Positions 6,626 through 64,000 are shown, numbered from the stretch's first letter. The stretch is DNA of 64,000 nt from Azolla caroliniana (GCA_043228905.1 JBHGNT010000008.1:16120001-16184000), one strand, 5' to 3'. A program made the numbers and translations. The notes: generated by a model from the sequence alone, not told the origin.

Positions 6626-9600
6626 ATGTACCCGGAGAGAGATCCAGATGCGGGGACATATTTGTGAATATGTTTGCCAAGAGCCCTCTAGGCTATATTT
6701 GTAAATAGCCCGAAAGTCATATATGTATAAATATGACTTAGGGCAAACAGTTTTGGTTGTTGTTGCTCATTTTTCTGTTTTCCACTTAGAGGGAGCGAAG
6801 TGAGAGCAGCCGAGAGAGAGAGTGAGAGAGGGAAAGGAAGAGGTCGACGCCTCTGTGTAATACCGCCGCCTGTGGCGAGGACAGCGAGCTCAAGGTCGTC
6901 GCCTTGCAGCTCGCCATTATACATTCCCTGCGTATAGTGATAGTTGGAGTCTTGCACTCCCGTGGTTTTTCCCGTCTAGGGTTTTCCACGCTAAACCCTG
7001 TGCATTCGAGTCTTTCTCTGTGTCTTCGATTTACTGCTGCATTGATCCGTGTTTCCTCGGTTGTGGCCGAGAGGTGAAGGTTTTTGAAAGCGTCAATTTC
7101 TAACAATCTGGTATCAGAGCGACTGCAGTGCAGAAAATGGAAGGCGGCAGCAGCGGGCAGCCGGGGATGATGGTGCTGAATGCGCAGAACTACGCCGACT
7201 GGAAGATAAAGATGGAGGATCTGCTCATTGTTCGGGACCTGTATGAACCGATCGACAGGTCGGAAATACCCAAGGGGGTACTTGAGACGGAATGGAGGCT
7301 TCTGAACCGGAAAGCCGTTGCAACCATTCGGCAATACGTCGACGTGAGCGTTCTACAACATGTGGCGAACGACACCAACGCATATGAGATGTGGCAGAAG
7401 CTGTCGGGCCTCTACGAGAGGAAGAATGCGTTGAACCGGACCTCCCTGATGAGGAAGATAGTGAACCTCAAGTACCGGGACGGCGAGAATATGGTGGAAC
7501 ACGTAAGCACGTTCATGGGATTCGTGAACCAGCTTGCGGCGATCAAGTTCCCGTTGGAGGATGCAATGCAAGCCATCATTCTGATGTGTACATTGCCGGA
7601 AAGCTAGGAGAACTTGGTGGTGACTCTCAGCACCTCCTGCACCGAAGATAACTTGTCTCTACAAACGGTAAAGACAAGCATTTTGAACGAAGAAGCGCGT
7701 CGGAGAGATAAAGAACCGGCCTCCGATCCGAAGATGCTTCTTACCGAATCGGATCGGGGAAGACAACGGAACCGGAGTCCGCAAAGACGGGAGAAGTCGG
7801 GGACCCGGTCGCAGTCAAGAGGAAGGCCCACATGCTTCCACTGTGGGAAGCCGGGGCACTTCCGAAAGAATTGTCGGCATTACCGAAAAGACAACGGAGC
7901 CGACGACACCGATTCGAAGAAGTCTTCGGAACGGAACGGTGCTTACCGGGGAGCCACGGACCGGAATGGTTCGGATCGGCGAGGGCAGGACCGGAAAGGA
8001 ACGACGGCACTCGCGGCAAGTGAAGAGGAGATGATGCTCATCACCGAAGAAGGTGAACTAAACATTGCCGGCGATGAGACTACCTGGGTGGTCGATTCCA
8101 GAGCGTCGTTCCACCTGACCCCGGAAAGAAGATACTTCTCATCCTACACAGCCGGTGAGCATGGCTGTGTTCGGATGGGAAATGAAGATACGTGCCGGAT
8201 TGCCGGCATAGGAGACGTGTGGTTGACAACCTCGACCGGATGCAAAATGTTGCTGAAGGATGTCCGACACGTTCCGGAGGTTCGATTGAACCTGATTTCG
8301 GCCGGGAGGCTAGATGATAAAGGCTACACAGGTAGCATCCGGAACTGCGTAATGAAGTTCAGCAAGGGGAGCCTGATAGTGGCTCGGGCCCAGAAAGTCA
8401 ACACACTGTACCTTATGAATGCCTGGTTGTGTCCGGAGGAGTTGAACGTGGCAGCCGACACAGCCGGTGAGCTGTGGCACACGAGACTGTGCCACATGAG
8501 TGAGAAGGGGATGAAGAGGCTTGCAAAAGACAACCTTATTCCAGTGAAGCATGTGCACCTGGAGAAGTGCACCGATTGCTTGGCCGGTAAGCAGAACCGA
8601 ACCTCCTTCCACTCAAGGCCACCGACGAGACGTAGCGCACCATTGGAGTTGGTGCACACTGACGTGTGTCAAGTAGAAACGAAGTCACATGGTGGAGCCC
8701 AGTACTTCGTGACATTCATTGATGACCACAGCCGGAAGCTGTGGACGGCACCGTTGAAGACAAAGGACCAAGCGTTGTGCGTCTTCAAAGAACTCCACGC
8801 GAGAGTGGAAAGGGAATCCGGCAAGAAGCTGAAAGCGATACGAGCGGATAACGGAGGGGGATACCGGGGGCAGTTCAAGGAGTACTGTCGCTCGAAGGGA
8901 ATCCGGCTCGAGTTTACTGTGCCGAAGACGCCGGAACTGAACGGGCTGGCCGAGAGGATGAACCGGACCATAATGGAGAGGGTCCGGAGTATGCTGGCGC
9001 ATGCGAAATTACCCAAGGGGTTTTGGGCTGAGGCAATGTCGACGGCGACATACGTGATAAACAGATCACCCTCAGTACCTTTGGACGGAGACACGCCGCA
9101 GAGAGTGTGGACCGGTAGGGAAGTATCCTACCGGCATCTGAAGGTGTTCGGGTGTCTCGCATATGTGCATGTGGCAAAGGACCGGAGAGGAAAGCTAGAT
9201 CCAAAGACCCGGCCATGCATATTCCTCGGTTACGGCGATGACGAATTCGGCTACCGAGTATGGGACCCGGTCGACAAAAAGATATTCCGGAGTCATGATA
9301 TCATCTTCATGGAGGACAAGACACTCGCCGACTGGGAGTCGGAGAAGAAGATGAAGAGCTCCAAGTCGACTGGTGAGGATCAACTCTACGAGGAGCAGTC
9401 CCGACCGGCAAGGGACCGGTTAGCACTCGAGGATCCGGCCGAAGACGGCGAAGAAACAGAACCGGCCGAGGAAGATGAAACTGATACCGGAACCGGCCCC
9501 GATCCCGAAATGGATTCGGATGAAGAGGAAACGGAGGAGCCGGTTACCGAAGCTCCGGAACGGAGATATCCTATAAGAGAGAGAAGGGCCCCCCGGAGAT

Positions 9601-33921: not shown

Positions 33922-35313
33922 ATGGAGGCTCAACAAGCTAACAATATGATGGCGATGTTCGAACGGATGCTTCAAGAACAACGCACGATGTCGGAGATTT
34001 CGGCATCAGTAGAGCGGCTCGTGCAACGGAACGGGCAATTTAATGGTAAGGATGTGTCGCGATATTTGCAGGACTACAAGGCGGAGATGCTCCGGTGCCG
34101 GGCTTCGGAAGGACTGCAAGTGACATCCTTTAACCGGGTGGCGACCGACGGGCTTCAAGGGATTATCCACGGGTTGCAACAACAAAATCCGACGTGGGAA
34201 GCATTCGAAGAGGCGTTAAAGACCACGTTTGCCATCGAGGACTTCTCCAAGGCAACGCGGAGGGGATTCGAGGATTGGGTGGAAACGTCAGGTAAGGGGC
34301 TGAAGGTCCTCGAAGTGTTTTCGGCATTCGAAAGTCGGTTCGGGAGGCTGTCCGCGAGAGATCAAACTATTCTTGCACCGGACAAAGTCATCATGTTTTT
34401 GCGAGCTGTGGGCGTCCGGGAAGCTACGGGATGGGAGTGCCCTGTCGACAAGAATAGCATATACGCCCTGTGTCAATTACATGAGGTGTATGTGGACGAG
34501 AAACGACGGCGCATGGAGGATGCGGCCGGACCATCGAAGATACCGGAAAGCTGGAACTCCGGAGGTAAGGGAAAAGAAAAGGCGACTCCGGCATTCAAGC
34601 TCGCCTCGGACATAGAACAACAAACCGACTTGAAAAGAGTGTTCGAGGAAAGAATCTTGGATAGCCGGGTAGATTTTTCGCTGCGGGAACTACTCGGAAT
34701 AGCGAAGAAGGAGTTTCACGATCTTCTCGTGGATCTCGTAAAAAGGAAGAGACAAAGTACGGAGGAAAATGCTCCAAGGGTGAATGCAAATACCGTTTCA
34801 ATGAACGACACCGAAGTGGAAGGCGAAATTCCGAACTCCCACTATACAAGGCCACACTGGGCACGTGCGACTACGGAGACTCCGGTCCGAATCGGCAACA
34901 TCAAAGAACCCGTGCTAGCATTGATTGATCACGGATCGGAGATCAACTTGATGTCCAAGGAGTTCTACCGAAAGGGGAAGTGGCCTATAAACACCAACCA
35001 TGGATGGAAGATTCGGGCAGCCACGAAAACGACAGAAGACCTATTTGCGGCTTGTCCGGATGTGACGGTAAAGATCGGGGATGTCGAAATTGACCAAAAT
35101 TTCTTTGTGCAGGATGAGGTTTCACATTCTGTCATCCTCGGCCAACCCTTTATCACGGCTTCACGGATGGAGACGAAGGTGCTCGATAGTGGTGCGGCTT
35201 TTGCGCGAATTCGGAGCCAAAACGGAGGGAAATCCGTCCAATTCCTAACGGTGCCGGCAAATCACGAAAGGAACAAGAGGGAACTCTTGTCCCAAGTGAG
35301 AATGGATTTTTAA
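33922..35313 (+). CDS. Element D Gag-protease ORF
   Basis: Capsid-like N-terminus; protease ALIDHGSEINLM...VILGQPF; no CCHC knuckle visible. Confidence 0.85.
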   Translation: MEAQQANNMMAMFERMLQEQRTMSEISASVERLVQRNGQFNGKDVSRYLQDYKAEMLRCRASEGLQVTSFNRVATDGLQGIIHGLQQQNPTWEAFEEALKTTFAIEDFSKATRRGFEDWVETSGKGLKVLEVFSAFESRFGRLSARDQTILAPDKVIMFLRAVGVREATGWECPVDKNSIYALCQLHEVYVDEKRRRMEDAAGPSKIPESWNSGGKGKEKATPAFKLASDIEQQTDLKRVFEERILDSRVDFSLRELLGIAKKEFHDLLVDLVKRKRQSTEENAPRVNANTVSMNDTEVEGEIPNSHYTRPHWARATTETPVRIGNIKEPVLALIDHGSEINLMSKEFYRKGKWPINTNHGWKIRAATKTTEDLFAACPDVTVKIGDVEIDQNFFVQDEVSHSVILGQPFITASRMETKVLDSGAAFARIRSQNGGKSVQFLTVPANHERNKRELLSQVRMDF

Positions 35314-35367
35314 AGCGGACTGTTGCGGAGTGGGGAAGTGATAGTCCGAGAAGCCCTGATACCCCAC
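35304..35367 (+). promoter_or_regulatory. -1 ribosomal frameshift signal: G_GAT_TTT plus H-type pseudoknot
   Basis: Stem 1 CGGACTGTT (35316-24) / GATAGTCCG (35340-48); stem 2 GTGGGG (35330-35) / CCCCAC (35362-67). Confidence 0.75.
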
Positions 35368-38300
35368 ACAGGAAGAAAACTCTCGGAGCAAAACAAGTAC
35401 GAATCGGCCCGGATGGGGCATCTACGTACACGGCCGTAACCGGAGGAATGAAGAAACAATACCGACAAGTGGAGGATAAGTTACGGTCGGCATCAATAAT
35501 AAAAGAAGACGAAGAAATCGTGGGAGTGATCGAGGAAGTGTTCTATGGGAATACACTACAACGGCTTGAAGAGCTTGCGGAAGATAAAAGCCAAGGGAAC
35601 CGGGTAGTCCCGGTGGAATCGGTCGAGATGTACGAGATCATTGCGAAAATGGAGCCGGATACGCTCCGCAAAGAAGAAGCAATGGTAAGTACGAAATACA
35701 AGACCGTGGAGAAAAAGGTGAAACCGGCCGCGGGACCATTACCCGCTGATAGCGAACAAAAGAGGAAAGAAGTCTCGAGAGATCCGACACTTCGGAAGAC
35801 CGTGGATATCGGACATGCCTTCACAGATGAGACCCGGAAGAAACTTCGGATCGGTGGAGGTGGGTTCCTCTTACAAGAAGAAGAAAAACGGTTTCGAGAG
35901 ATGTTGGAGCAACATGGCAAAGCATTCGCGTTCACATCGAGGGAGATCGGGTGCATTGATCCAAAGATAGTGGAGCCGATGGTGATCTTCACGATTGATC
36001 ATGTACCGTGGAACCTGAAGCCGATTCCGGTGCCACGGGCGCATATTCCGAAAGTCATCGACTTGCTCAAGGAGAAGGTGGCGATGGGGATTCTAGAGCC
36101 ATCAAGTGCTCCGTACTCAAATCGATGGTTTACGGTTCCGAAGAAGAATGGGTCACTCCGATTCATCCAAGACTTGCAACCGGTGAACAAGGTCACGATC
36201 CGGAACTCGGGAGTCGGTCCGATAGTGGACGAATTCGCGGAAGCTTTTGCCGGACGTGCGATATACTCCATCGGGGACCTATACTCGGGGTATGACCAAT
36301 TCCAACTAGCCGTGGAGAGCCGAGACATCACTACCATGCGGACACCGATAGGACTAGTTCGAATGTGCACACTACCACAAGGAGCGACAAACTCGGTTGC
36401 ACATATGATGAACGCGATGAACAAGGTGCTTCGAGATTGCATCCCGGAGATAACGATGCCGTTTCTAGATGACATTCCGATGAAAGGATGCGCGGTGGAA
36501 GAAAAAGATGAGACTATGGATGATCGGGGATGCCGAAAGTTCGTGGTCGACCATATTCATGATTGCGAGAAAGTGTTGCGAAAGCTAGAAGATGTGCACC
36601 TAACACTTTCCGGGGAGAAATCGGCATTCGGGCAAGAAGAAATATTGGTGGTCGGACATCTATGTGGACCCTACGGCCGAAGACCGTCACCAACAAAGAT
36701 CGATGCGATTCAAGCTATGAAGGAAGTATGTGAGTCAACATCGGAAGTCCGAAGGTTTCTAGGTGCGTGTGCATTCTATCACATATGGATTCCACACTAT
36801 GCACATATAGCGGACCCGCTCTATCACTTGTTGCGGAAAGGTAAGAAATTCGAGTGGAAACCGGAACACACTAAAGCCATGAGGAAGCTCAAGAAGACAC
36901 TATGGAGGGCGGAATCACTTAAGAAGCCAAGCTACGAGCGGCCAATCATAGTAACGGTTGATACAAGTCCAACCGGTATCGGGTGGGTCATCAATCAAGC
37001 CGACTCGGATGGTTCGCGGTATCCGATCCGATTTGGAGCAAAGGTCCTCAACGAAAGGCAACGCGGATATGCACAAATCAAAAGAGAATTGTGGGGAGTC
37101 GTGTCGGCGATAAAATCGGATCGGGATTATTTGATCGGAGCTGAAGTGGTGATCGAGACGGATTGTCTTCCGATACTCGGGATGATGCGGTGTTGTACGA
37201 TACCGGATGTGGCTATGCTAAGGTGGATTGCATATGTCAAGTCACTTAATCCGGAGGTTCGACACATCTCGGGGAAGGACAACGCGGTAGCGGACATGTT
37301 ATCGAGGGCGCGGTTTGAAGACGACATAACCGAATCAGATAATGAAGAAGTTTCCGAAGACTACTTCACGTCAGAACACATATGCCGAGTGAACGTGATC
37401 CGAGAATTCCGGGAAGAAGAATACGAGGGGGAAACCTTGATGATCGGGAAGATGCTACAAGAGGTCGAGGATTCAACCAATGATAAAGAAAGGAGAGCCG
37501 AGATCCGAAGGAAGAAGAGGCAAGTCCAAAAGTTCTTCTTGGAAAACGGTTTAATATGGAGGACGACGAAAAGACCGGATGGGATACCACTTCGAGTAGT
37601 CGGGACAAAAGAGCAACGAAACCGGATAATCTCCGAGTTCCACGAATCCGATTGGGCTGGACATCGAGGAACGTGGGCAACTTTTGTGAAAATCAAGCAA
37701 AGATATTGGTGGAAGAACATGTATAAAGATGTCGCGGAGTTCACAGAAAGCTGCGAGAAATGTCAAGTCTACTCCGGGGTCCGACACCGAGATGAGCTGC
37801 ATCCGACATTCTCACCGACAATCAACTTCAAGTGGATGGTCGACATTGTAGCTATGCCGACCGGGATTGGACAAAAGAAATACTTGGTGTTAGCTCGAGA
37901 AGATCTCACAAACCAAGTTGAAGGTCGAGCGCTTCGGAGGAAAACGTGTGCCGCGGTGTGCCAATTTCTTTTGGAAGAAGTGTTTTGTAGGTACGGCTGC
38001 GTAGGACAAGTGATTGCGGACCGGGGAGAACTCGACTCGGACAAAGCTAGGGGATTCTTCGCCAAACATGGAGTTCGATTAACGTTGACAACGGCCTACA
38101 ATCCGGAGGCCAACGGGAAGATCGAACGAGGACATAGTCCGATCGTGAAAGCACTTGCGAAGGCATGCGACGGAAGGGTGAAGGATTGGCCACAAATACT
38201 TCCGTATGCACTATGGGCGGATCGGACGACGCATAGCTCCGTGACCGGTTACATGCCGGCAGAACTCATGACCGGACAAGCACCGGTAATGCCAACGGAA

Positions 38301-38915
38301 ACCGCAATCGCGACATGGACAATACTACCGTGGAAGGAAGAGATGAGCCGGGAAGAACTACTAGCGGTCCGGATACGACAACTGGAGGGAAGACCGAAAG
38401 ATGTAGCGGAAGCGTCACGCCGACAACAAGAAGCACGGTTCCGGAACAAAAGCCGGTTCGACACAAAGCACCGACTACGACCGAGGAGGATTGAAGAAGG
38501 AGATTGGGTGATCGTCTATGATAGTAGCTTGGACCATCAACATACAACGATGCGGAAATTCGCGAAAAGGTGGTTCGGGCCGTACGAGGTTCGGAAGGTC
38601 TTCGACAACGGGACGTACCAACTGTCCGAGTTGGATGGAACAATACGACGAGTGCCTATAGCCGGGAAGCGGGTGAAGATTTTCAAGAAGCGGACCGACG
38701 ACAAACCTTATGTGATCCAAGTCGAGGCCGACAACGAGGAGCAATCGGACGAAGACCACAATGATGCGGGAAGCGAAGAAAGTGGATTACAACTCATAGT
38801 CGACATAAGGGGAGAATCGGAGGAAGCTTCGGATGAAGACGGATACGAAGAATCAAGAACTTCGGCACATACCGGAGGATGTGCGGGTTTGGAGGGGGCG
38901 AGTGTCGTAGTGTAG
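35304..38915 (+). CDS. Element D RT-RNase H-integrase ORF, in the -1 frame and intact
   Basis: LPQGATNS and PFLDD (RT); VDTSPTGIGW and NAVADMLSR (RH); HHCC, WMVDIV, IADRGE, NGKIERGH and GPY module (INT). Open from the slippery site to 38915; first ATG at 35448. Confidence 0.92.
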   Translation, partial: GFLKRTVAEWGSDSPRSPDTPHRKKTLGAKQVRIGPDGASTYTAVTGGMKKQYRQVEDKLRSASIIKEDEEIVGVIEEVFYGNTLQRLEELAEDKSQGNRVVPVESVEMYEIIAKMEPDTLRKEEAMVSTKYKTVEKKVKPAAGPLPADSEQKRKEVSRDPTLRKTVDIGHAFTDETRKKLRIGGGGFLLQEEEKRFREMLEQHGKAFAFTSREIGCIDPKIVEPMVIFTIDHVPWNLKPIPVPRAHIPKVIDLLKEKVAMGILEPSSAPYSNRWFTVPKKNGSLRFIQDLQPVNKVTIRNSGVGPIVDEFAEAFAGRAIYSIGDLYSGYDQFQLAVESRDITTMRTPIGLVRMCTLPQGATNSVAHMMNAMNKVLRDCIPEITMPFLDDIPMKGCAVEEKDETMDDRGCRKFVVDHIHDCEKVLRKLEDVHLTLSGEKSAFGQEEILVVGHLCGPYGRRPSPTKIDAIQAMKEVCESTSEVRRFLGACAFYHIWIPHYAHIADPLYHLLRKGKKFEWKPEHTKAMRKLKKTLWRAESLKKPSYERPIIVTVDTSPTGIGWVINQADSDGSRYPIRFGAKVLNERQRGYAQIKRELWGVVSAIKSDRDYLIGAEVVIETDCLPILGMMRCCTIPDVAMLRWIAYVKSLNPEVRHISGKDNAVADMLSRARFEDDITESDNEEVSEDYFTSEHICRVNVIREFREEEYEGETLMIGKMLQEVEDSTNDKERRAEIRRKKRQVQKFFLENGLIWRTTKRPDGIPLRVVGTKEQRNRIISEFHESDWAGHRGTWATFVKIKQRYWWKNMYKDVAEFTESCEKCQVYSGVRHRDELHPTFSPTINFKWMVDIVAMPTGIGQKKYLVLAREDLTNQVEGRALRRKTCAAVCQFLLEEVFCRYGCVGQVIADRGELDSDKARGFFAKHGVRLTLTTAYNPEANGKIERGHSPIVKALAKACDGRVKDWPQILPYALWADRTTHSSVTGYMPAELMTGQAPVMPTETAIATWTILPWKEEMSREELLAVRIRQLEGRPKDVAEASRRQQEARFRNKSRFDTKHRLRPRRIEEGDWVIVYDSSLDHQHTTMRKFAKRWFGPYEVRKVFDNGTYQLSELDGTIRRVPIAGKRVKIFKKRTDDKPYVIQVEADNEEQSDEDHNDAGSEESGLQLIVDIRGESEEASDEDGYEESRTSAHTGGCAGLEGASVVV

Positions 38916-50154: not shown

Positions 50155-53100
50155 GAACTCCACATAAACGCAAGTGATCATACCTATCAAGTTCACATGG
50201 CAAATAGAATTGTTCAATACATCACTGCCATTGTTTGTCAACTGCCAATTCAAATAGATATCTATTTGGAGAAGCTTGACTTTCATGTTATGAAACTACA
50301 ATCCATAGATGTCATTTTAGGATACCCTTGGTTTTTTAATAAAAACCCTTCTTTGTCCATTGATTGGGTTAATCACTCAATCACATTTGAAGTTAATAAT
50401 TGTAAACATTTTATTCAATGTTCCAAACTTCCTTCTCGTTCACTTGTGTCTTCTAAATCTTTAAGTGAGTATTCACGTTCATTAATTTATTCGTGTGTAA
50501 TTGATCTTGCGCTTCAATTTTATTATTTTAATATTGACGCCACACAATTACCACATTATGAACAACAATTACTAGACTCTATTTTAGATGATTTTCAAGA
50601 CGTGTTTCCTAACGAATTGCCACTTACTTTACCACCAAAATGTAATGTGGACCATCAAATTGAACTCATGCCTAGTGTTGCTCATGTGAGCATTCCACCT
50701 TACCGACTTAGTCGATTAGAAGAGGATGAGATCACTAAACAACTTAAGGAATACCTGAGTATGGGCCACATTAGGTATAGTAAATCACCTTGGGGTGTGC
50801 CTGTTCTATTAGTTAAGAATAAGGAAGGTTCATGGCAAATGTGTATCAATTATCGCCGTTTGAATAAAATGACAATTAAAAATGCATATCCGTTACCTCG
50901 TGCCGATGATTTGATTGATCGTTTGCATGGGCCCCGATATTTTACGAAAATTGACTTACAGACATGTTATCATCAGATTCGCATTGCCGAGGATGATATT
51001 CCTAAAACTGCTTTTCGTACGCGCTATGGCCATTATGAGTTTTTAGTCATGCCTTTCGGGTTGACTAATGCACCAACCACATTCCAACAAGCGATGAATG
51101 ACGTTTTCCTAGATCAACTCGGATTTTGTTGTCGTCTTCTTGGATGATATTTTGATATATAGCCATACCTTACAAGATCATGTTCAACATGTTCGATTTG
51201 TTTTGCAAAAGTTGCGTGACAACTCTTTCTATGCAAAACATTCAAAATGTGATTTTTTCCAAAAATCTATTGTGTACCTAGGTCATTTAATCACGGAAAA
51301 TAGTGTTGAAATTGAACCTTCTCGTATTGAAAAGGTTAAAATTTGGCCCATTCCTCGTAATATTCGTGAACTGCGATCATTCTTAGGGTTTGTTGGATTT
51401 TTATGAAAATCAATTCGTAACTATTCCAAATTGACTATGCCATTTACTGACCTTTTAAAAGGTCATCCACGTAAGTCTGTCAAACCAATTGCATGGAATG
51501 AACAACTTGACAAAGCATATGACACACTCAAAGAGCATGTGTGTCAGGGTCCCACTCTTCTATTATCGGACCCTTCTAAGCCTTTCTCAATCGAAACCGA
51601 TGCTAGTGATTATCCTATTGGTGTCGTTCTTTATCAAGGTGGTCACCCTATTGCTTTTGAAAGTAAGAAGCTTGATGCTGCTCAGTCTTGGTATTCGGTT
51701 CAAGAGAAAGAGTTGTTTGCGTTAATACATACACTTAAAACATGGAGGCACTATCTGTATAGAAATAAATTTGTGGTTACAATAGACATCAATCATTGAA
51801 GTATTTTTGTGACCAGCCAGATCTTGTTGGTCGTAAAGGCCGTTGGGCTTGACAAGAACTACACGCTCCCGATGAACAACGCTCGGCCACAACCGAGTCT
51901 AAGATCAAACACAGAAAACGGATAATGAACGCACGACACAAAGGAGAGAAGAGTACACAGGATGTTTAACATGGAAAACCCTGAGAGGGGGAAAAACCAC
52001 GGGAGTCCACAGACTCCAAACTATCACTATATCACAATGGTTACAACAGTGAGCTCATGGAGGCAACGACCTCGCGCTCACGATCTTCGCCACAAGCGGT
52101 GGTTACAACAGAGGCAACAACCTCTTCCTCTCTCTCTCTCTCTCTCTCTGTACACTGTTACGCGCTCTCTAATCTTGCGCAAACAAGAATGACAACAACT
52201 CATCATATTCTAAGTTTGCCCTAAGTCATTTATACTAATATGACTTTTCGGCTATTTACAAATATAGCCCCGATGGCCTCTCAGGAAACATATTTACGAA
52301 TATGTCCATTCATCCGGTGAACACTTCTCACCGGGCCTTCACCATCCGGCTCTTGCCGGGTAATCCTCATCCGGTTCTCACCGAGTCTTCCGTAGCTGGG
52401 TACTCCTCATCCGGTTCTCACTGGGTCTTCCGTCGTTGGGTACTCCTCATCCAGTTCTCACCGATTCTTCCGTAGCTGGGTACTCCTCGTCCGGTTCTCA
52501 CCGGGTCTTCCGTAGCCGGGTACTCCACATCCGGTTCTCACCAAGTCTTCCGTAGCTGGGTACTCCTCATCCGGTTCTCATCGGGTCTTCCGTAGCCGGG
52601 TACTCCACATCCGGTTCTCACCGGGTCATCCGTAGCTGGGTACTCTTCGTCCGGTTCTCACCGGGTCATCCCATCCAGAGGGACCTATTTCCTAACAGGG
52701 CTGACCTTATGCAAGATTTTGATTTTTCCATACGGTATCGCAAGGGTTCTATCAACATTGTTGCGGATGCTCTTAGTCGCATTAAAGAAGTTAACTTGCT
52801 TAGCTTCAGGGAAATAAAATATGATCTTTTAGATCACCTTCGAGGGAAATACCTTGATGACAGTTATTTTTCGAAATACTGGACGAAAGCCAAATCTGGT
52901 TTAGATGCCGATACTAGCACCCTACCCTCGAAGTTGATCTTTCACATTACAAATAGTTTGCTCTACCATAGTGGAAAGGTCTGTGTTCCAGATTTACCAA
53001 ACGTAAAACAGAAAATTCTTCATGAATGTCATGATGCACCATCTGTTGGTCATCCTGGAATACAACGCAGAGTCGTTTTCATCTCGAGTACTTTTTTCTA

Positions 53101-54008: not shown

Positions 54009-55837
54009 TGTTGTTTCGCTTTCGCGTTGGAAATAAGGCGCGACCGCAGGGGCCCTGAACCGAGGAGCAAGAGAAAGAAAAGGGAGGGGGAAGCGCGCAA
54101 GCGTAGGGAAAAGAAAAGGAAGACTCACAAGAACACAGATAGACGAGAACAGGAGATTCAATTACAATAACAATAACGATTACAGTGTTTGCAAGATTAT
54201 AGCCGGCTAGCCGGCGACAAACACAACCCTCACAATCACTCACCCACACACCCACACAGTAGAGCCTTGCCAGAAGGCACACGGCTTTCCTCGAAGCAGA
54301 GGGAACCAACACGGAATCCTACAGAGAACAACGAAGGAGGAGAGAGCTCGGTTCCCAGTCCGACAGCACCTCGACCTGCCCTTCACACGCTCGTACCAAA
54401 GCCTTCACGATCGGTCCGTGTCTGCGTTCTACCTTCCTGTTCGCCTTCGGATTGTACGTTGTAGTGAGGGAGAGCTTGACCCCTAACCGGTCGAACAGCT
54501 CCTCAACTTCCCGCGCTTCCAGCTCTCCCCAATTCGCCACGATTTTCCCTACACATCCGTACCGGCACACTACCTCCTCGATCAAGAACCGGCACACCGC
54601 TGCAGTTGTCTTGTTCGTCTATGCGCGTCCTTCCACTTGGTTCATTAAATCTTCCCGCGCAAGCACCAGATACCGCATCTGCCCTACTCCCATCGGCATT
54701 GTCACTACGTCCACCATCCATTTGAAGTGGATGGTCGGCGGGTAGGTTGGGTGCAGCTCGTCTCAATGCCGGATTGTGAAGTGAATCTGACAGTTTTCAC
54801 ACGTTGTTACGAAGTGGAACACATCCCGATACAGCCTCGGCCACCAATACTTCTCTTTCAGTTTCTCAAACGTGGCCCATGTCCCGCGGTGTTCGGCCCA
54901 AGGACTCTCATGGTATGCCGTAAGCAACGCGTCCTGCTCGTCCTTTCTCGCTACTACGCGGAGTGGGACACCGCCTCGCTTCTTAGGGTGCCTCCATATG
55001 TTCCCGTCCCATAGGAAGAACCGGTAAGCTTTCTTTCGGATCCGGCTAGCCTCTTCTTTTGTCCACGCCGTGTCTGGTGTCATTGTCTTTAGGAACCTAC
55101 CGATCTAGAGCAACTCCCCATCGTACTCGTTAAGCGCCTGAGTGCTTCTCCCCTTAGTTATGTATGCCGTCTCGAAGAAGTCTACGCTGACTTCCTCGTC
55201 CTCTGAAACCATGTCGTCCTCGTCGTCGAACCGCGCTTTCGAAAGCATGTCGGCCATGGCATTGTCCGTCTCGATTATTACCTCTGTCCCTATAAGATAA
55301 TCTTTGTCGGCCTTAACCGTCGAAACGATACCCCATAGTTTGCGCTTAACTTGGGCGTATCCTCATTGTCGCTCACTGAGAACCTTCGCCCCGAACTAGA
55401 TCGGGAACCGCGCACCCCTCTCGTCCTCCTGATTGATCACCCATCTGATCCCGGTCGGGCTTGTGTCAACAGTTAAGTAGACAGGGATCTCCTTGCCATA
55501 AACCGCTTTCCTGAGAGCCGGTGATGCGGTAAGCGCCTCCTTCAGTCTCTGGACCGACTCAGTATGCTCCTTGCCCCATTCAAATTTGCGCCCCTTCTTC
55601 AGCAACCCGTAAAGTGGTTCTGCGATGTGTGCGTAGTGTAGAATCCACATGTGGTAGAACGCGCACGTGCCCAGGAACCTCCGCACCTCCGGAACCGACT
55701 TGCACTCTTCCTTCATTACGGAGATGGCTTCTATCTTTGCCGGAGACGGTTTTCGACAGTAGGGCCCGCACATGTGACCGACCACTAGGATCTCCGACTG
55801 ACCGAACGCCTATTTCTCTACGGAGAAGGTGAGCCGT
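54009..55837 (-). mobile_element. Truncated D-like gypsy J: part of the 3' LTR fused to integrase, plus RH and the end of RT
   Basis: EEVVCRYGCVGK, HRGTWATF and VDTSPTGI are homologous to D. Integrase breaks near 54365 into LTR-like sequence. Boundaries approximate. Confidence 0.8.
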
Positions 55838-56185
55838 TGTCGCGAAAATACGAAGAGGATACGTGAACTTGAGGCACGACACCGGGGCCTTCGGCTGGAG
55901 GACATCATATTCGTGCTTTTATATTTTTAACAATTAACGGAAATAAGAAATTTCATAATTTTCATTAACAAGAAAAGAAATTACAATATGTCCCAAGATT
56001 GGGATTCAAAAGTCTTATCTTATGGAAGCCATAGCTCTCAAAAACCCTAAATTTTCTATGGAAGCCATAACACTCATAAACCATAATTTTCCATACGGAA
56101 GCCATATCTCTCATAAACCCTAATTTTCTTACGGAAGCCAAAAACCCTATTTTTCCCTACGGAAGCCATATCTCTCAAACCCCTA
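55838..56185 (-). mobile_element. LTR fragment K of the D/I group, inserted in J RT
   Basis: Starts TGTCGCGAA like the I LTR; shares ACCGGGG..TT.G.CTG..GAGGAC; left flank CCGT; about 36-bp repeats GGAAGCCATA...AAACCCTAA. Confidence 0.65.
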
Positions 56186-58080
56186 ATGCATATATGCATA
56201 CACTGTTACACATACAAGCATACATACATTACATATTACATATATACACATATGTACATTCATACATGTACATACATGCATTGTATATGCATATATTACA
56301 ATCACACATTCATATACATTGAATCATGTACATTCTCATATATATATGCATACACATACATACATTACATATGCATACACATATGTACATTCGTACATGG
56401 ACATAACTATATTCATTTATATATTGCTACATATAGATACACTAGAATCATGTACATTGTCATATGGATATATGCATACACATACATACATACATGTATA
56501 TATACATACATACATTACATATGTATATATGCATACACATATGTACATTCGTACATGGACATACATATATTCATTTATACATTGGTACACATACATACAC
56601 ATACATACATAAGATATATACATAGATATTATGCACATATTACAATCACACATCAATACACATTGAATCATGTACATTTGCATATGCATATATGCATACA
56701 CATATGTACATTCGTACATGGACATACATATAGTCTTTTATACATTGCTACATGTACATACACATACGTACATACATACATACATACATACATATATTAG
56801 ATATATACACACATACATATATATATATACACCTACATATAGTCTTTTATACATACACATACATTACATATGGATATATGCATACATATGTACATTCGTA
56901 CATGGACATACATATATTCATTTATACATTGCTACATATACATACACATAGATATACATAGATATTATGCACATATTACAATCACACATCCATACACATT
57001 GAATCATGTACATTTGCATATCCATATATGCATACACATATGTACATGGACATACATATAGTCTTTTATACATTGTTACATGTACATACACATACTTACA
57101 TATATTAGATATACACACACATACATATATATATACATATATATATATATATATGTATGTATATGTATATGTATATATATATATATATGTATATGTATAT
57201 GTATATATATATATATGTATATGTATATGTATATATTATACATACACATACATATATATTACAAACAAATATCCACACACACATTCAAATATACATGCAT
57301 TACATATTACAATGTACATTCATATATTCATTCATTCATACATGCATACATTATGTGCACATACATACATAACATACATCCATACTAAACATAACATTCA
57401 AACATTCATGTTTTTTTAATTTAGATTTTTGCCGCCTCCTCCTTTGCTCCCTCCTCTTCTCTCCTCATTGCCACTGTCACCTCTTCTCCCCTTGTTTCTG
57501 TCCTCATTTTGTTGCCTTTGATCTTGTTTTTCCTCCTCCATTCTCGTTTGGCCGCCACCACCACTCACCTTGTCATGCCACTTTTGCTCACCATTATTCT
57601 CTGTCAGGGCTGCCACAACTACTATACAAATATTTTACAGGTACACATAAGTACAAACATCATACATACATAAACCAACACATAAATTCTTAGACACACA
57701 CACACACACATATAACATATATAACCATACACATTGGCCATAAATACAATACATACAATAAACGAAATTAATACATTACAATACAATATGTACATACATA
57801 CACACATACCTATATACACATATATACACTTACATACATACACACATACCTATATACACATATATACACTTACATACATACACATATAACACATAGCACA
57901 TAACACACAACACACATGCATACCACATACAAACATATATGATGTATGGAAAATACATACACATACACAAACATAACAAACAACACACATGCATACCACA
58001 TACAAACATATATGATGTATGGAACATACATACACACACACATCGCACATGCATACCACATTCACAATGCACACATACAC
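56186..58080. repeat. CATA/TACA/TA low-complexity array with about 340-bp higher-order units, interrupted by a pyrimidine-rich island at 57420-57620
   Basis: ATATTACAATCACACAT..ATA.ACATTGAATCATGTACATT recurs near 56293, 56636 and 56972. Confidence 0.85.
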
Positions 58081-58410
58081 ACATATATATGATATGGTTA
58101 TATAAAAAATGGTAGGTGGGCCATTCTATGTGTAGATAATGGATGAAGAATCTATCATTGAAGTGTTTGAATACCACATTCACAATGCACACATACACAC
58201 ATATATATGATGTATGGTTATATGAAAAATGATAGGTGGGCCATTCTATGTGTAGATAATGGATGAAGAATCTATCATTGAAGTGTTTGAATACCACATT
58301 CACAATGCACACATACACACATATATATGATGTATGGTTATATGAAAAATGATAGGTGGGCCATTCTATGTGTAGATAATGGATGAAGAATCTATCATTG
58401 AAGTGTTTGA
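58053..58410 (+). repeat. 120-bp tandem triplication that includes the transposase start codon
   Basis: Three copies ending ...TGTGTAGATAATGGATGAAGAATCTATCATTGAAGTGTTTGA. Confidence 0.9.
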
Positions 58411-61400
58411 ACATGAGAGGGATGATGAAGATAAACCTTTGGGCATTGTAAGTGTGAGAGGAACTCTTACATATGCAAAGATTCGAGTGGAAATAATTGA
58501 GGACGGTATATTTTATGAACCATTTTCCTTTGTGTATACAAAAAATAATATTTTGAATGGGAAACAAGAAGAGAAATGTTGTTTAAAAGAAATAAAGTCT
58601 ATATCAAGCCTAGTATTGATAAACAACAAAGAGTCTCTTCAAAATAATCATGCATTAATGTTGAGGGTTCATTGTTCAATCAAGCCGAGGACAATTTTAA
58701 AGATACATCTCCAAATGAAACAATCAAGGATAAGATTCCTAGAGATGTTTTAGGTAAATGGATGATAGAATGTAATAGGATACGTGTAAAATTAAGCAAT
58801 GCTACAATTCCTCGAGATGATAAATTTGAGTTGAAGGTTGAGGATTTTTGTGGAAAAATAGTCATAAGATTATGGTGCAATGAGTGTGGAGAACCCTATG
58901 GTGCTGGTTCTACGGAAGCAAAAGTAGCAAATGTGTGTCTTAATAATATTTTTAGAAGTCATATTAAGAGCCAAAGTCATGAAAAACGATATTATGCTCC
59001 AAGGGGGTTAAGCCAACAAGATGAATCAATAAACTTATCTAAAATAAATGATGAGGCCTATATCAAGTCTTCGTTGGAAGTTCTCAAGACTTTTAATGAC
59101 ACTACAAGTGGTAAGCATGTTTGTGCTTTAAACCTTAATATTGTAGTTATGAATAATATGCTAATATATGTGAAAATGTTGTTTTATAGATGCAAAATTT
59201 GATTGAATAGAGGCAACACTTCACATTGGATATAAAGATAAGGCAATGGTGAAGGTAAAATGCAAGATTGATGGATCTTGGTTGCAAGTATGCCCTCCAC
59301 AGAGTGATTTGTCAACAATTTTGTCTCAACACATACAATCCAAGACCCATCTAAAGGTAGTGGAGATGGTTCAACATGTTGGTACACCAATAATGAGTGG
59401 ATTTCTGGGTCGTCTACGAAAACAAGAAGCTTTACCTTCAAATCAACAAACCTTGAGCAAATTTCTTGTTTTAACTTTGCAACCTTCGTCTAGTCAAGAA
59501 TGTGAGTTCTCTACTCCACATTATTTTGGTTTGTCACTATTGTGTTGGGGATATTGGCATAACAACATAGTGATAAATGATGAAGAGATACATGTAAAAT
59601 CATTTCTCATTGATCAAAATCATGGCGCCTTATGGTACTCTGAGCCTTACACCAAAGCTGTTGTGATGTATGAGATGCAAGAGTGTGTTATTGATGGATG
59701 TTTTCGTCATTTTGATTGTAAAAGAGTATCGAAGCTTGAAGAACCCTTTCATAATCTTACATGTGAAAAATGTAATGATTTTGTATGAGGGTATATAGGG
59801 AGCGTAGGGCTAAAGTCAAAAGAGGTAATCGAGGAACTAGGGAGGGTAGGCGACTAGATTATCTTACTTAAGAAGACACAAGAAAGGAAATTTCAAGTTC
59901 TAAGCAAACAATCCGTCGCACTCATAGACAAATATGGTGGCTAGCTTGCAAAGTTGCAATGCTTTCAGTAAAGGTAATGACTCTCAAGGAAGCATCCCTT
60001 GAGAGTGTGGAATGGAAGGATGTTCGAAGATTTTGTAATAATATTATTGAGGCTCATCGAGCTGGAAAATTTGGTGGAAAGAATGCATCATGGGATTTCT
60101 TGACAAATGTTGCACAAAACCTTACTCAAAAGCCACATGGACAACGATTTAAAGACACATCTAAGGCAATTTTTGTCATGATTAAAATGTCGGGTGGACC
60201 AAGACTACACGACTTTGTTTCTAAATATTTAGATGGACCATCATTAAGCACTACAAAGAGAGTTGAGAGGAAGACATCTAAATACCTTCTAGGGATCCAT
60301 GAATATATATTTTAGGATGTGGCTAAGATTTATGAAAATGAAAAAAGAGTGCATGGCATTATAACAAAGGTTCCTTTCATTATTGTCGAGGATGAGACTG
60401 TGATTAAGTGGAATGTTAAGTGGGATAGCTCAAATAATTTACTTTTGGGTTTTTGTGGGCTGAAGTCATCCAATCATCAATGTGTCTCATCATGTATGAT
60501 AAAGGTGGGTGACTCAATTGTTGGTTATGAAACTATTGTTAGCTCCTTTAAAGACTATGTGGTTGGACACTATGTTAGCGTGTTAATTGCGAATCTTCTT
60601 CACCCTAAACTTCCACGATTAGTATTGGTTGTACAATGTACATGTAATTGCTTTGATGCAGATTTTGTAAAATGCCAATGGAATGAAGTGGAAACTCTAT
60701 GGGAAAAACACCTCTCCATAAGTATTGGGCCAATTGTTGGACATGCATAAGATGGAGATAGTAGGAGAAGAAAGATTATGCTTCAAGATTACTTAACCCC
60801 AAGCATATGCTTAAGATATAAATTGCCTTGGGATGGTTGGATCTTCACAAGTCAAATGCATAATGATATAGTAAGTTGTCTTCATGATCAAGATTTCATC
60901 CATAATGGAAAGAAACTTGTGAATGCACTAGATAATCCCTCAAGAAAATTAGTAATCGGAGATGTATGGATCACATTGAATCATGTGTCATTGGTATATA
61001 ATAACTTCTCTATCGATGCACATGGCTTAAGGGAATGTGATACTAAGAGAGAAGATAGAAACAATTGGGTTGGAGCCTAAAGAATTGCAAGTAGAAATGT
61101 TACTAATTGTTTAAAGATGTTATACCAAGGTGGAGAAGGTGTCAAAGTAAGAGAAAGAGGCGCTTTGGGAACACATGTATACTTGCATATATTAGGTGAC
61201 TATATGATATTTTTCTATCCCCTCATGAGAGCTTATTCAAGCGTGTGGCACTTGCATCTGAAGTTGCATTCTTCTTTCAAATATGGAGATTATGGATTCT
61301 AAATAATCCAATCTATAATTTAAAAAGTAGTTTCATTAGTCAGGAAACATTTTTGGATGTACAAATATCTTGTCACTTTGTAGTTTTACTTATAAAAATG

Positions 61401-61470
61401 TTTTGTGACTTTTATCCACAACTAGAATTTCCATTGCATCTCATAGGGTCTGATGGAGCTGAGATAGTTT
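58379..61470 (+). pseudogene. Decayed DDE transposase with P-element-superfamily-like motifs, two C2H2-like zinc fingers and at least one intron
   Basis: EDETVI (60391); GHA*DGDSRRRK (60751); QDFIHNGKKLVN (DxxH, 60892); LIGSDGAE (61461). Intron 59111-59189 (GTAAGC...CTAAT...TATAG) restores the frame. Confidence 0.65.
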
Positions 61471-62361
61471 TAGTTTTCTTGTTGTTGTTGTTACATGTTA
61501 TAATACAGGTCCAACGTTGAAGATGGAAACGACATGAAATTTATAGCATAAAATGAACTTCTTAGGGTTTTCTTTTTATATAGTTGATCTTTATAAGGGT
61601 AACATTTATTGCAATAAGTTTTTTAAGTAGACATTGCAATAACAAATTGATTTATTTTATTCCATTTGATTTCTTACACTTCAAATGGAAATATGAAGTA
61701 GGTTGCCATTTGTTTGATCAATTTGTTTGAGAAAAAATAATGTTATGGCTTCATATGAGTCTATCCATGAAACCAAACATAATGTTAATTTGTTAGTAAT
61801 TTCATTATTGATATGCATTTTGGATTGTTCCATGTGTGCTTTTTGAGATATATATGTCAAGTTCAAGATTGTTTTATTGTAAATTACATTGTTTTTTATC
61901 ACTCTATATTCTTCATACGTCTCAATAAACTAAAAACAAAAACTTACATGTGGTTTATATATGTTATACCTCTAGTGTTTTTGGGTAATGTTTCCTAATT
62001 TTGTGTGCATTACTTTGTACTTTACACATTGTGTTTTCAATCTATGTGGCACATGATGAAGCATTTCTAGGAATTTGCATATGATGTTTAATGTTGATTC
62101 ATAATTTTGCAAGTCATCAATTGTAAAGATAGTCATTGATCCCTTCTAGGATTAGAAACTATGTGTGCATGTATATTTTATATGTAAGGGTATTTGAAAT
62201 GGGTGGTTATCAAAAAATATATTGGTAATAAGGGGTATTTTTTTTAATCTTTTTTTCTACACAAGGGTCACTAAAATATTAAAAAACATACGTATAAGGG
62301 GTTTATAAATGATGTCATGAACGCACGTGATACAACCTTCTTATATATAGTGGAGTCCCCG

Positions 62362-64000
62362 GGGTGCCACCCTTTTGTTGCTGCAAGCGCGATCACAGTT
62401 CGAACTGTAGTCATCTTTGCTACAGGGGCAAAGGTCTCTTCGTAGTCAACACCGTATGTCTACATACCCCTTTGCCACAAGTCGGGCCTTGTACCGATGG
62501 AAAGTGTCATCAGTGTTGTGCTTTACCTTGAAAATCCACCGGCATCCAATTGCCTTTTGGTGGTTTGAAGAAGGGACGAGATCTCATGTCTCGTTCTTGG
62601 ACAGTGTTTGCATCTCCTCATTCATCATTTTGACCCATCTAGGGTCCTTCGTGCCTTTGGATTAGTTTTCCGGTTCTCAGACTATCGACACCTTCATTAT
62701 GAATGCATAATGATATACCATGTAGTCGTGTAGCTGAATCGACGTGGTTCTCCTGGTGTCCTTATGATAGGCACATCCAATCTACCAAACTCACATCCAA
62801 AAGTGAGTCATTTCATTTCCAACTGAGTCTTCATACTCAAGCATTTTGGCCTTCCCTTTGTCCTGTTTCAGACTCAGCCGCGACGTGCTTTGGTCGCCTT
62901 GAGGCTCGAACAAGTGAGTCGATTCATTTCCAACTGAGTCTTCGTACTCAGGCATTTTGGCCTTCCCTTTGTCCTGTTTCGGACTTGGCCGCGACGTGCT
63001 TTGGTCACCTTGAGGCTCTTGTGGTCCACTCAACTTGGTTGAGATTGGACTTTCCTCTAATGTGAACCTCAGTCGATCATCCTCCTCCGCATCTCTGTCG
63101 AACTTGGTTTCGATTGTGTCAAATGGGGCTGATTCGACTGTATACCAGGATGCTGACTCGTCAAATACTACATCCCTACTCACTCGTGCCTTCTTGGTGG
63201 AAGGGTTGAAGCACTTATACCATTTTTCCTCGAGTGAGTACCTTACAAGTATACATTTCTCTGACTTGAGATCGAGCTTCTACCACATGTCATCGGGAAT
63301 ATGTACATATGCAATTGAATCGAATATCCTAACATGAAATAGATCTGGTTTCTTCCCATAGAACTTTTCGCAGGGGTTAACTTCGTGCACTCTTGATGTT
63401 GTGCAACGATTCATCAGCTAAACAGCCACATTCACCGCTTCGGCCCAATATGACTTTGGCACATGTTTCTTATTCATCATTGCCCTTGCCACCTCGAGTA
63501 TGTGCCGATTCTTGCGTTCGGCTACTCCGTTTTGCTGAGGTGTGTGTCGGCAAGTAAACTCCCGCCGAATTCCTTCTTGTGGAAGGTATGTTGTAAAGGC
63601 GGCGGAGAAGTACTACTTGCCGTCATCCGATCGAAGGCATCGGACATGCCGACCAGTTGCCTTTTCGACTTTATTTTTGAACCTTTGGAAGTGTCCAAAC
63701 ACTTCGCTCTTCTGCCGCATGGGGTAGATCCATGTATGTGTGGAGAAGTCGTCGATGAACGTTACGTAGTACAGGCAACCACCGGATGTTGTCGTCTAGG
63801 TTGGACCCCATACATTTGAATGTATTACATCCAGGATCCCTTTGCTTGTGTTCCTCTCCTTTGGGAATGGTTGTCGGTGTTGTTTGCCGAATTGACAAGC
63901 TTCGCAAACGTGTGCAATTTCCTTTCCAATGAAAGTTGGGAGTCCGGTGACAACTCCTTTCGACTGCATTCCCTTGAGCTTTTGGAGATTGATGTAGCAT
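62362..64000 (-). mobile_element. Copia fragment L (A-like): integrase and start of RT; runs off the window
   Basis: [13 protein letters not shown]; [14 protein letters not shown]; ends at KGWH; 111-bp duplication at 62801-63018. Confidence 0.85.

Follow-up and report, generated by a model that had tools for sequence, protein, structure and literature searches.

The 64,000-nucleotide stretch of the Azolla caroliniana genome analysed here (GCA_043228905.1 JBHGNT010000008.1:16120001-16184000; hereafter the window) very probably carries a dead copy of a many-copy cut-and-paste transposon, whose transposase has a predicted P-element fold and likely represents a divergent, ancient P-superfamily lineage common to ferns, liverworts, and corals. 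The element that carries it is a decayed DNA transposon of 6.5 kb, probably spanning 55881–62363. A first-pass annotation had placed a P-like transposase at 59959–61470; this span does lie within the element, but the gene begins approximately 1.6 kb upstream of it (ATG at 58379) and the element is larger.

P0055, an open relative of 1,122 amino acids (aa) from public assemblies, is 91–92% identical to window positions 59246–61463 (445/482 and 78/86 residues). At E≤1e-3, the read-through translation of the broken frame matches 53 proteins of about its own length and a further 16 that are longer. Because of these matches, the broken frame stands far beyond chance. With the model of P0055 (mean predicted local distance difference test score, pLDDT, 80; 64 sequences), Foldseek ranked the Drosophila P transposase first (E 1.8e-10) and RAG1 next (5e-5). 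Similarly, a fold comparison gave Z 26.2 for the P transposase structure 6p5a, with 415 of 442 residues aligned at a root-mean-square deviation (rmsd) of 5.3, followed by Transib (11.4), RAG1 (10.5), Hermes (8.8), and ISCth4 (8.3). The match superposes residues 253–781 on 6p5a residues 128–566 and, since it begins at residue 128, includes the helix-turn-helix (HTH) side. In a language-model atlas, the neighbors of the core were unnamed, mostly Basidiomycota clusters (0.96 and 0.93) and P/THAP9 clusters (0.93–0.95). The P-like assignment of the first-pass annotation is therefore borne out by two structure programs and by the atlas.

Of the features that define the P superfamily, we found an RNase H-like core with a helical insertion (in the predicted model), a D-D-E triad with DxxH, an HTH before the catalytic domain, terminal inverted repeats (TIRs), and, in relatives, a target-site duplication (TSD) within the 7–9-bp range. 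The transposase is predicted to adopt the P-element fold, and with these features it likely belongs to a divergent P-superfamily lineage outside the canonical THAP-bearing subgroup. A check against the Pfam P profiles, which the first-pass annotation had proposed, gave few matches: the window protein gave no match, while PF12017 was found in 3/45 relatives, one of them over the cut-off. PF21787 was found in 1/16 relatives (E 2.6e-4, under the cut-off), and PF21787–21789 had no match in the window protein or in the same 45 relatives.

The motifs first reported for this region are real and follow one another in order on the + strand. EDET (60388–60399) contains the first catalytic Asp, D389 in P0055 numbering, which a wider profile aligns with D230 of the Drosophila transposase (E 0.07). 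HA*DGD follows at 60742–60759, the Ser codon of SDGD being a stop in the window copy; its DGD (60751–60759) contains the second catalytic Asp, D509, directly after strand 503–508 in the secondary structure of the model. DQDFIHNGKKLVN (60886–60924) forms the DxxH motif (D556 and H559), and GSDGAE (61446–61463) contains the catalytic Glu, E746, with D743 three residues before it. Among 258 aligned domain rows, near invariance is seen for the triad (D389 in 164/164, D509 in 179/184, and E746 in 123/125 rows) and for D556 (179/184) and H559 (183/183), and D743 is Asp in 114/126 rows. The same spacing separates D528 and E531 of the Drosophila transposase, as given in PMC7776569. Moreover, C410 (162/170), H417 (162/172), C419 (164/168), and C473 (172/179) are conserved and may bind a metal.

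A scan of the collection returned 62 loci, of which L001–L004 share 95% identity with the window across the gene. The right terminus of the element, TAGTGGAGTCCCCGGG (62348–62363, + strand), has the same 16 letters in the window, L001, L002, and L003, each followed by a different flank, while L004 carries a variant form. In addition, 14 contigs of run X6 depart at 62363 with dissimilar sequence (agreement 0.43). Because four unrelated flanks and the X6 contigs all depart there, the element was dispersed and mobile, with its right end at 62363; a single conserved locus, which the first-pass annotation had named as evidence against itself, is not what the four flanks describe. At the other side, a decayed left TIR probably lies at 55881–55897 (+ strand). 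With the window letters as they stand, the two ends agree at 11/16 places, no better than chance (a score of 11 is reached at 52 places in the window, and the best score is 13). With majority letters from four DNA runs at four places, agreement rises to 15/16, against a window best of 13. These letters are drawn from several contigs and need not sit on one molecule, and none of the fetched contigs spans the simple-repeat tract to the gene; for these reasons, the left end at 55881 is only probable. The sharp right end and the probable left end revise the earlier statement that no TIRs were found.

Within the element, a sequence scan located five spaced copies of GGAAGCCATA at 56024–56170 (+ strand; four exact and one with a mismatch) and one near copy in reverse orientation at 61744, with no exact copy in window positions 1–55000. 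These repeats are candidate subterminal transposase-binding sites. The 13-mer GAACGCACGTGAT (62319–62331, + strand) might likewise have a binding role; it lies 32 nt from the right end both in the window and in the distant relative L012, in which the protein match reaches only 39% identity. Between the left repeats and the gene lies a CA/TA-rich simple-repeat tract (56186–58069), where assemblies of related copies are interrupted or cease to agree. Across the whole window, a search for repeats yielded simple ones only. The 8-bp flanks of the window copy, GGCACGAC (55873–55880) and GTGCCACC (62364–62371), form no duplication and come from different repeats, likely as a result of recombination between two copies or of an adjacent deletion.

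A joint from 58570 to 61729, skipping 3,158 bp, occurs in two of three DNA runs at a summed depth comparable to the coding part, and four smaller joints are also listed inside the coding part. The large joint probably marks internally deleted derivatives, that is, a non-autonomous deletion family. A fragment in L052 (80–485), 75% identical to the window in DNA, represents a second, older subfamily. In L001, an opposite-strand non-LTR (LINE-like; LTR, long terminal repeat) 5′ region (1–1910) meets the element inside the predicted intron, either by insertion or by an assembly join.

The cluster of P0055 has 58 members, and among 14 others examined, 10 are 97.7–99.6% and four are 92–97% identical. 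Near-identical open frames in many assemblies would also suit a domesticated, immobile single-copy host gene with pseudogenes, comparable to THAP9. Against such a gene stand the single terminus with four flanks and many more contigs, the TIRs and TSDs of relatives, the deletion joints, and the CG/CHG decay described below, and we give this explanation next to no weight.

TSDs are shown in relatives of the element; for the window's own family, no contig holds both ends. The scan for TIRs with TSDs covered 29 of the 62 loci, and L030 was recovered by a motif scan alone. L009 is a complete element: its 26-bp inverted repeat is perfect and starts CTCGGGGGGG, and its 8-bp TSD, GTTTTCAT, is exact. 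This is the kind of intact copy that the first-pass annotation had suggested looking for. L030 has similar, imperfect inverted ends with GTTACAGC on either side (an 8-bp TSD) and two additional C on its left side. In L012, both ends are present, with a 15-bp TIR and no TSD, and L008, L033, and L038 have a right end of the same type. The ends of distant relatives are G-rich and inverted, starting CCCGGG or CTCGGG. An AT-rich repeat in L020 was rejected as a TIR and TSD candidate. Several of the 8-bp flanks of the window, L003, L009, and L030 (GGCACGAC, GTGCCACC, GTGGGGAC, GTTTTCAT, and GTTACAGC) begin with G and have AC, AT, GC, or CC as their last two letters; we take them to resemble loosely the target consensus of the fly P element, and they are too few for a test. 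LTR-retrotransposon-like flanks occur in two of three fetched loci (L001 and L003) and in the window. Because such flanks are expected in such a genome, no target preference is claimed.

An 8-bp TSD is also hAT-like, RAG/Transib and Hermes are among the structural matches, and TAGTG occurs in the right end, all of which could point to a hAT, Mutator, CACTA, or Transib-type transposase. We nevertheless find this hardly credible. The Z scores of Transib, Hermes, and ISCth4 given above compare with 26.2 for P, and no hAT, MULE, or CACTA family of Pfam matched the window frames, the read-through, or the relatives; a better match to one of these families, named in the first-pass annotation as a ground for abandoning the P assignment, was thus not obtained. 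TAGTG was rejected as a CACTA end, since the mapped end lies 11 bp farther out. CACTA/EnSpm and Transib elements are defined by CAC-starting ends and a 2–5-bp TSD, and both were rejected here, with ends starting CCC, CTC, or CCA and a TSD of 8 bp.

The gene of this P-like transposon is predicted to comprise two exons encoding about 1,380 aa. Exon 1 (58379–59110, + strand) starts at ATG 58379, corresponds to an open 271-codon frame in L002 and L003, and is frameshifted at 58592 in the window. It encodes a CxxC..HxxxxxH zinc-finger-like motif (58876–58980), and a Pfam search of this N-terminal domain returned zero matches. The start-codon region lies in a 120-bp unit with three tandem copies in the window (58070–58429, + strand) and one in L002–L004; a joint skipping 120 bp occurs at this triplicated unit in all three DNA runs. 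Excision of the 80 nt in L003 that match the predicted GT-AG intron (59111–59189, + strand) yields a single 1,384-aa frame, in agreement with relatives of 1,420–1,530 aa (P0057, P0058, and P0060–P0062), and three further AG sites near the predicted acceptor also preserve the frame in L003. The predicted exon 2 remnant (59190–61471, + strand) aligns with P0055 residues 1–746 and encodes a second finger-like motif, a CxxC, and, as modeled, a coiled coil, an HTH, and a split RNase H domain with a helical insertion.

The window copy is dead. Exon 2 is broken by a 19-nt deletion at 59782, stops at 59869, 60313, 60748, and 61078, and a frameshift at 61204; the last three stops and the frameshift confirm the broken frame reported earlier for 59959–61470. 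At a junction at 61469–61472, about 1,275 bp present in L001 (4228–5502) are absent, with loose ends at 61471–61475, and this 1.3-kb deletion took the last 376 codons, including a BAH-like domain. With L003 taken as ancestral, C>T or G>A changes affect 19/92 CG, 13/55 CHG, and 28/999 CHH sites; an excess of CG and CHG transitions is the pattern expected of methylation of plant transposable elements (TEs). A truly intact copy presumably exists elsewhere. In the 12% that was read of one poly-A library from a related organism, two reads fell on the 3′ non-coding part and none on the coding part, which is not taken as evidence.

The named homologues of the read-through, all annotated as hypothetical proteins, come from Adiantum nelumboides (6), Riccia sorocarpa (4), Oculina patagonica, and Desmophyllum pertusum. 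The plant names are thus a fern and a liverwort only, as the first-pass placement in non-seed plants had anticipated; no seed-plant name occurs among the named hits, although few hits are named, and no fungal name occurs among the named sequence hits. P elements also occur in Chlamydomonas. In a profile search, thresholds of E≤1e-3 and 1e-30 gave 5,183 and 890 representatives, respectively, of which the best 150 were inspected; the larger set may include ordinary P elements. One short peptide pattern found no relative in 83 candidate stretches of prokaryote genomes or in 10 of viral contigs, and a protein search confined to proteins of 2,868–5,000 aa, which has no bearing on the range of the lineage, also returned none.

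A FastTree phylogeny was built from 96 of 214 core hits (at least 380 profile columns, or named with at least 150). The window family groups with Adiantum (SH support 99), a 25-row clade (SH 100) holds all eight named plant rows, and a separate 20-row clade (SH 100) holds Oculina. Because the plant rows form one clade, old vertical descent in land plants is favored. The coral proteins match directly, at E 3e-32 and 2.8e-25, and the distribution is patchy; both would fit a fairly recent horizontal transfer out of aquatic animals such as corals. However, plant sequences are only 33–35% identical to the coral clade, fern and liverwort share one clade, and the fern rows stand together, so that we consider such a transfer very unlikely. 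These data would also accommodate a very old transfer, one that predated or accompanied the early evolution of land plants. Of the two origins proposed at first, ancient or horizontal, the tree therefore favors the former, and the lineage looks anciently inherited rather than recently transferred.

The transposase also differs from canonical P in its putative cofactor site. PMC7776569 describes guanosine triphosphate (GTP)-dependent transposition with 17-nt staggered end cleavage and lists D528, K385, K400, V401, S409, F443, D444, and N447 as the GTP contacts of the P transposase. The equivalent of D528 is Asp in 114/126 rows, that of D444 is Asp or Glu in 95/146, and that of S409 is Ser in 52/162. 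In contrast, N447 has an Asn equivalent in 0/146 rows, and K400 and K385 have Lys equivalents in 4/175 and 10/173. This mapping uses an alignment segment of −0.5 bits, which is non-significant, and serves as a lead. Read in this way, the K385, K400, V401, F443, and N447 equivalents are apparently replaced, and the chances that the GTP pocket was remodelled, with the need for GTP lost or altered, appear about evenly balanced.

The model of the C-terminal domain (pLDDT 76) retrieved BAH or BAH-bearing chains as the top 8 of 48,161 (Z 6.7–7.5 over 77–95 residues); four are titled so, and the other four we take to be BAH-bearing. The best match has Z 7.5 and rmsd 3.0 over 84 aligned residues, with chromo and Tudor barrels next (Z 6.0–6.6), and the atlas gave 0.76 and no lead for this part. 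A C-terminal profile is found in 34/46 proteins of 950 aa or more in several clades; it was built from relatives of some of these proteins. Tentatively, the BAH-like tail may read methylated histones during target choice, a role that we would sooner doubt than assume. Terminal modules seem to have been swapped across the clade. Other relatives (P0190, P0199, and P0319) carry a PTM/DIR17-like Tudor domain (E 1e-9), a SAP domain (E 6e-10), and a weak C17orf113-type zinc finger; in one relative, a Tudor domain takes the place of the BAH-like one. Chromatin-reader capture by TEs in general is described in bioRxiv 10.1101/2021.11.30.470311.

Several observations weigh against a P-superfamily transposon with these properties. 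Neither the window protein (eight frames and the read-through) nor the P0055 core matches a relevant Pfam family. A sequence search of the PDB with the read-through found no match; the narrower profile misses the P transposase, and the wider one finds it at no better than E 0.07. The structurally matched residues are just 14–15% identical. The tree comes from FastTree only, lacks a P/THAP9 outgroup, and comprises mostly nameless rows. The left end depends on majority letters, and no fetched contig joins it to the coding part. The window copy has no TSD, and TSDs occur in only two of three relatives with both ends (L012 has none). The open frames come from short-read repeat assemblies and may be collapsed majorities rather than real intact copies, and L004 is broken in exon 1. 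The score of the BAH-like match is one that common folds also reach, and neither a Foldseek hit at E≤0.001 nor a Pfam BAH match was obtained. Finally, Pfam searches of the window frames, the N-terminus of the window protein, and the relatives of P0055 found no THAP domain; two C2H2-like motifs and a CxxC stand where it would be. The absence of THAP excludes the canonical animal P/THAP9 subgroup without excluding the wider superfamily.

Some of these differences could instead mean that the clade forms its own superfamily, a sister of P with the same fold and with ends, DNA-binding module, cofactor use, C-terminal domain, and name of its own. Its members are nearly invisible to the P models of Pfam, and 5,183 representatives, perhaps with ordinary P elements among them, exist at the threshold given above; their ends start CCCGGG or CTCGGG, they lack THAP, they conserve C410/H417/C419/C473, and their first two catalytic Asp are 120 rather than 73 residues apart. 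Moreover, only D528 of the eight GTP contacts maps clearly, with D444 and S409 mapping in part, and the C-terminal profile recurs in the long proteins. However, P-type character is seen in each of the 8-bp TSD, DxxH, D..E spacing, and HTH; PF12017 scores over its cut-off in one relative; and the GTP mapping comes from the non-significant segment. According to PMC7776569, THAP is restricted to animals and hence would be missing from any non-animal P. On this evidence, we regard a separate superfamily as improbable and retain a divergent lineage within P.

For this lineage, we propose a mechanism in which the zinc-finger-like motifs, instead of THAP, and the HTH would bind subterminal sites. The element ends would then be paired and cut, and the 3′-G ends joined to target DNA with an 8-bp stagger. 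A GTP pocket that may have been remodelled could have lost or altered the need for GTP, and the BAH-like tail might steer target choice by reading methylated histones. A still wider reading would be a eukaryote-wide, undescribed sister lineage of P with CCCGGG ends, zinc fingers replacing THAP, a GTP-independent insertion domain, and a BAH-type reader, present in land plants before the fern/liverwort split, lost in seed plants, and with a recently, perhaps still, active fern family; taken as a whole, this picture is unlikely.

The DNA around the element is nearly all nested Copia- and Gypsy-type retrotransposons (1–55837 and 62364–64000). On the left, 55838–55880 is the first 43 bp of an unrelated high-copy repeat that starts TGT, adjoins a Gypsy-type pol on the − strand, and is not part of the element; 10–30 contigs per run depart at 55834–55838 with unlike sequence (agreement 0.39–0.49), and the repeat is probably an LTR start. 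On the right, an interrupted Copia-type retrotransposon (62364–64000, − strand), also outside the element, is joined from other sequence by 19–21 contigs per run. Two terminal repeat pairs are 100% identical, namely 23253–23892/26124–26763 (640 bp) and 33007–33882/38903–39778 (876 bp, with an open 1,241-codon pol frame at 35190–38915), and both retrotransposons are therefore very recent insertions. A 40-bp tandem array (52315–52711) lies in a solo-LTR-like insert (about 51848–52700) that splits a Gypsy pol, and related arrays occur in other terminal repeats of the window. In L002, the right flank (about 6760–7164, − strand) reads like what we take to be a cellulose-synthase-like exon, and that copy may lie near a gene.

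We found no description of P-type elements in ferns or bryophytes in the literature searched; Repbase, Dfam, and genome-paper supplements lay outside the search and may list some. The earlier characterization as under-described is consistent with this result and is not proven by it. The introduction of PMC6839031 (2019) counts seven plant DNA-transposon superfamilies and leaves P unnamed. PMC3698922 gives 7–9-bp TSDs and P-like elements in protists and animals, PMC5751038 reports P in Pucciniales (rust fungi) and Allomyces, PMC12387193 has a 'P-Fungi' class in its Pleurotus repeat table, and PMC7466625, PMC9940879, and PMC4455052 yielded nothing further on plant P. If correct, these results would mean that the genomes of non-seed plants contain an unannotated TE class, a P-type lineage present in many copies in ferns and liverworts and missed by Pfam. 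The reader-like tail, if real, would make chromatin-guided insertion by a cut-and-paste transposon a testable model. The copy in the window is no more than a fossil.

Compared with known systems, the C-terminal model weakly resembles the BAH domains of AIPP3 (7cce), EBS (5z8n), Rsc2 (4bb7), ORC1b (5hh7), and DNMT1 (BAH1, 7lmk), all at Z <8. Fungal P elements ('P-Fungi') are, as here, THAP-less, P-like, and outside animals; this likeness is drawn from descriptions and atlas clusters. THAP9, the vertebrate P-related protein (with the Pdre elements in zebrafish), has the same catalytic architecture. In contrast, THAP9 has a THAP domain and its human gene has no TIRs, whereas here there is no THAP and there are termini with many flanks. 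Human THAP9 keeps only the F443, D444, N447, and D528 equivalents among the GTP contacts, according to PMC10824691, whereas the N447 equivalent is found in 0/146 rows here. The closest comparison is with the Drosophila P element (6p5a and 6pe2), whose superfamily comprises P, 1360/Hoppel, and Galileo. Both share a predicted coiled coil, an HTH, a split RNase H domain with a helical insertion, a D-D-E triad with DxxE at the third site, DxxH, an 8-bp TSD, and a 3′-terminal G, and both have internally deleted derivatives. In contrast, the present protein has about 1,380 rather than 751 aa, its ends start CCCGGG or CTCGGG, the D1–D2 spacing of 120 against 73 reflects 47 extra residues with conserved Cys/His, and a C-terminal beta-barrel stands in place of the acidic tail.

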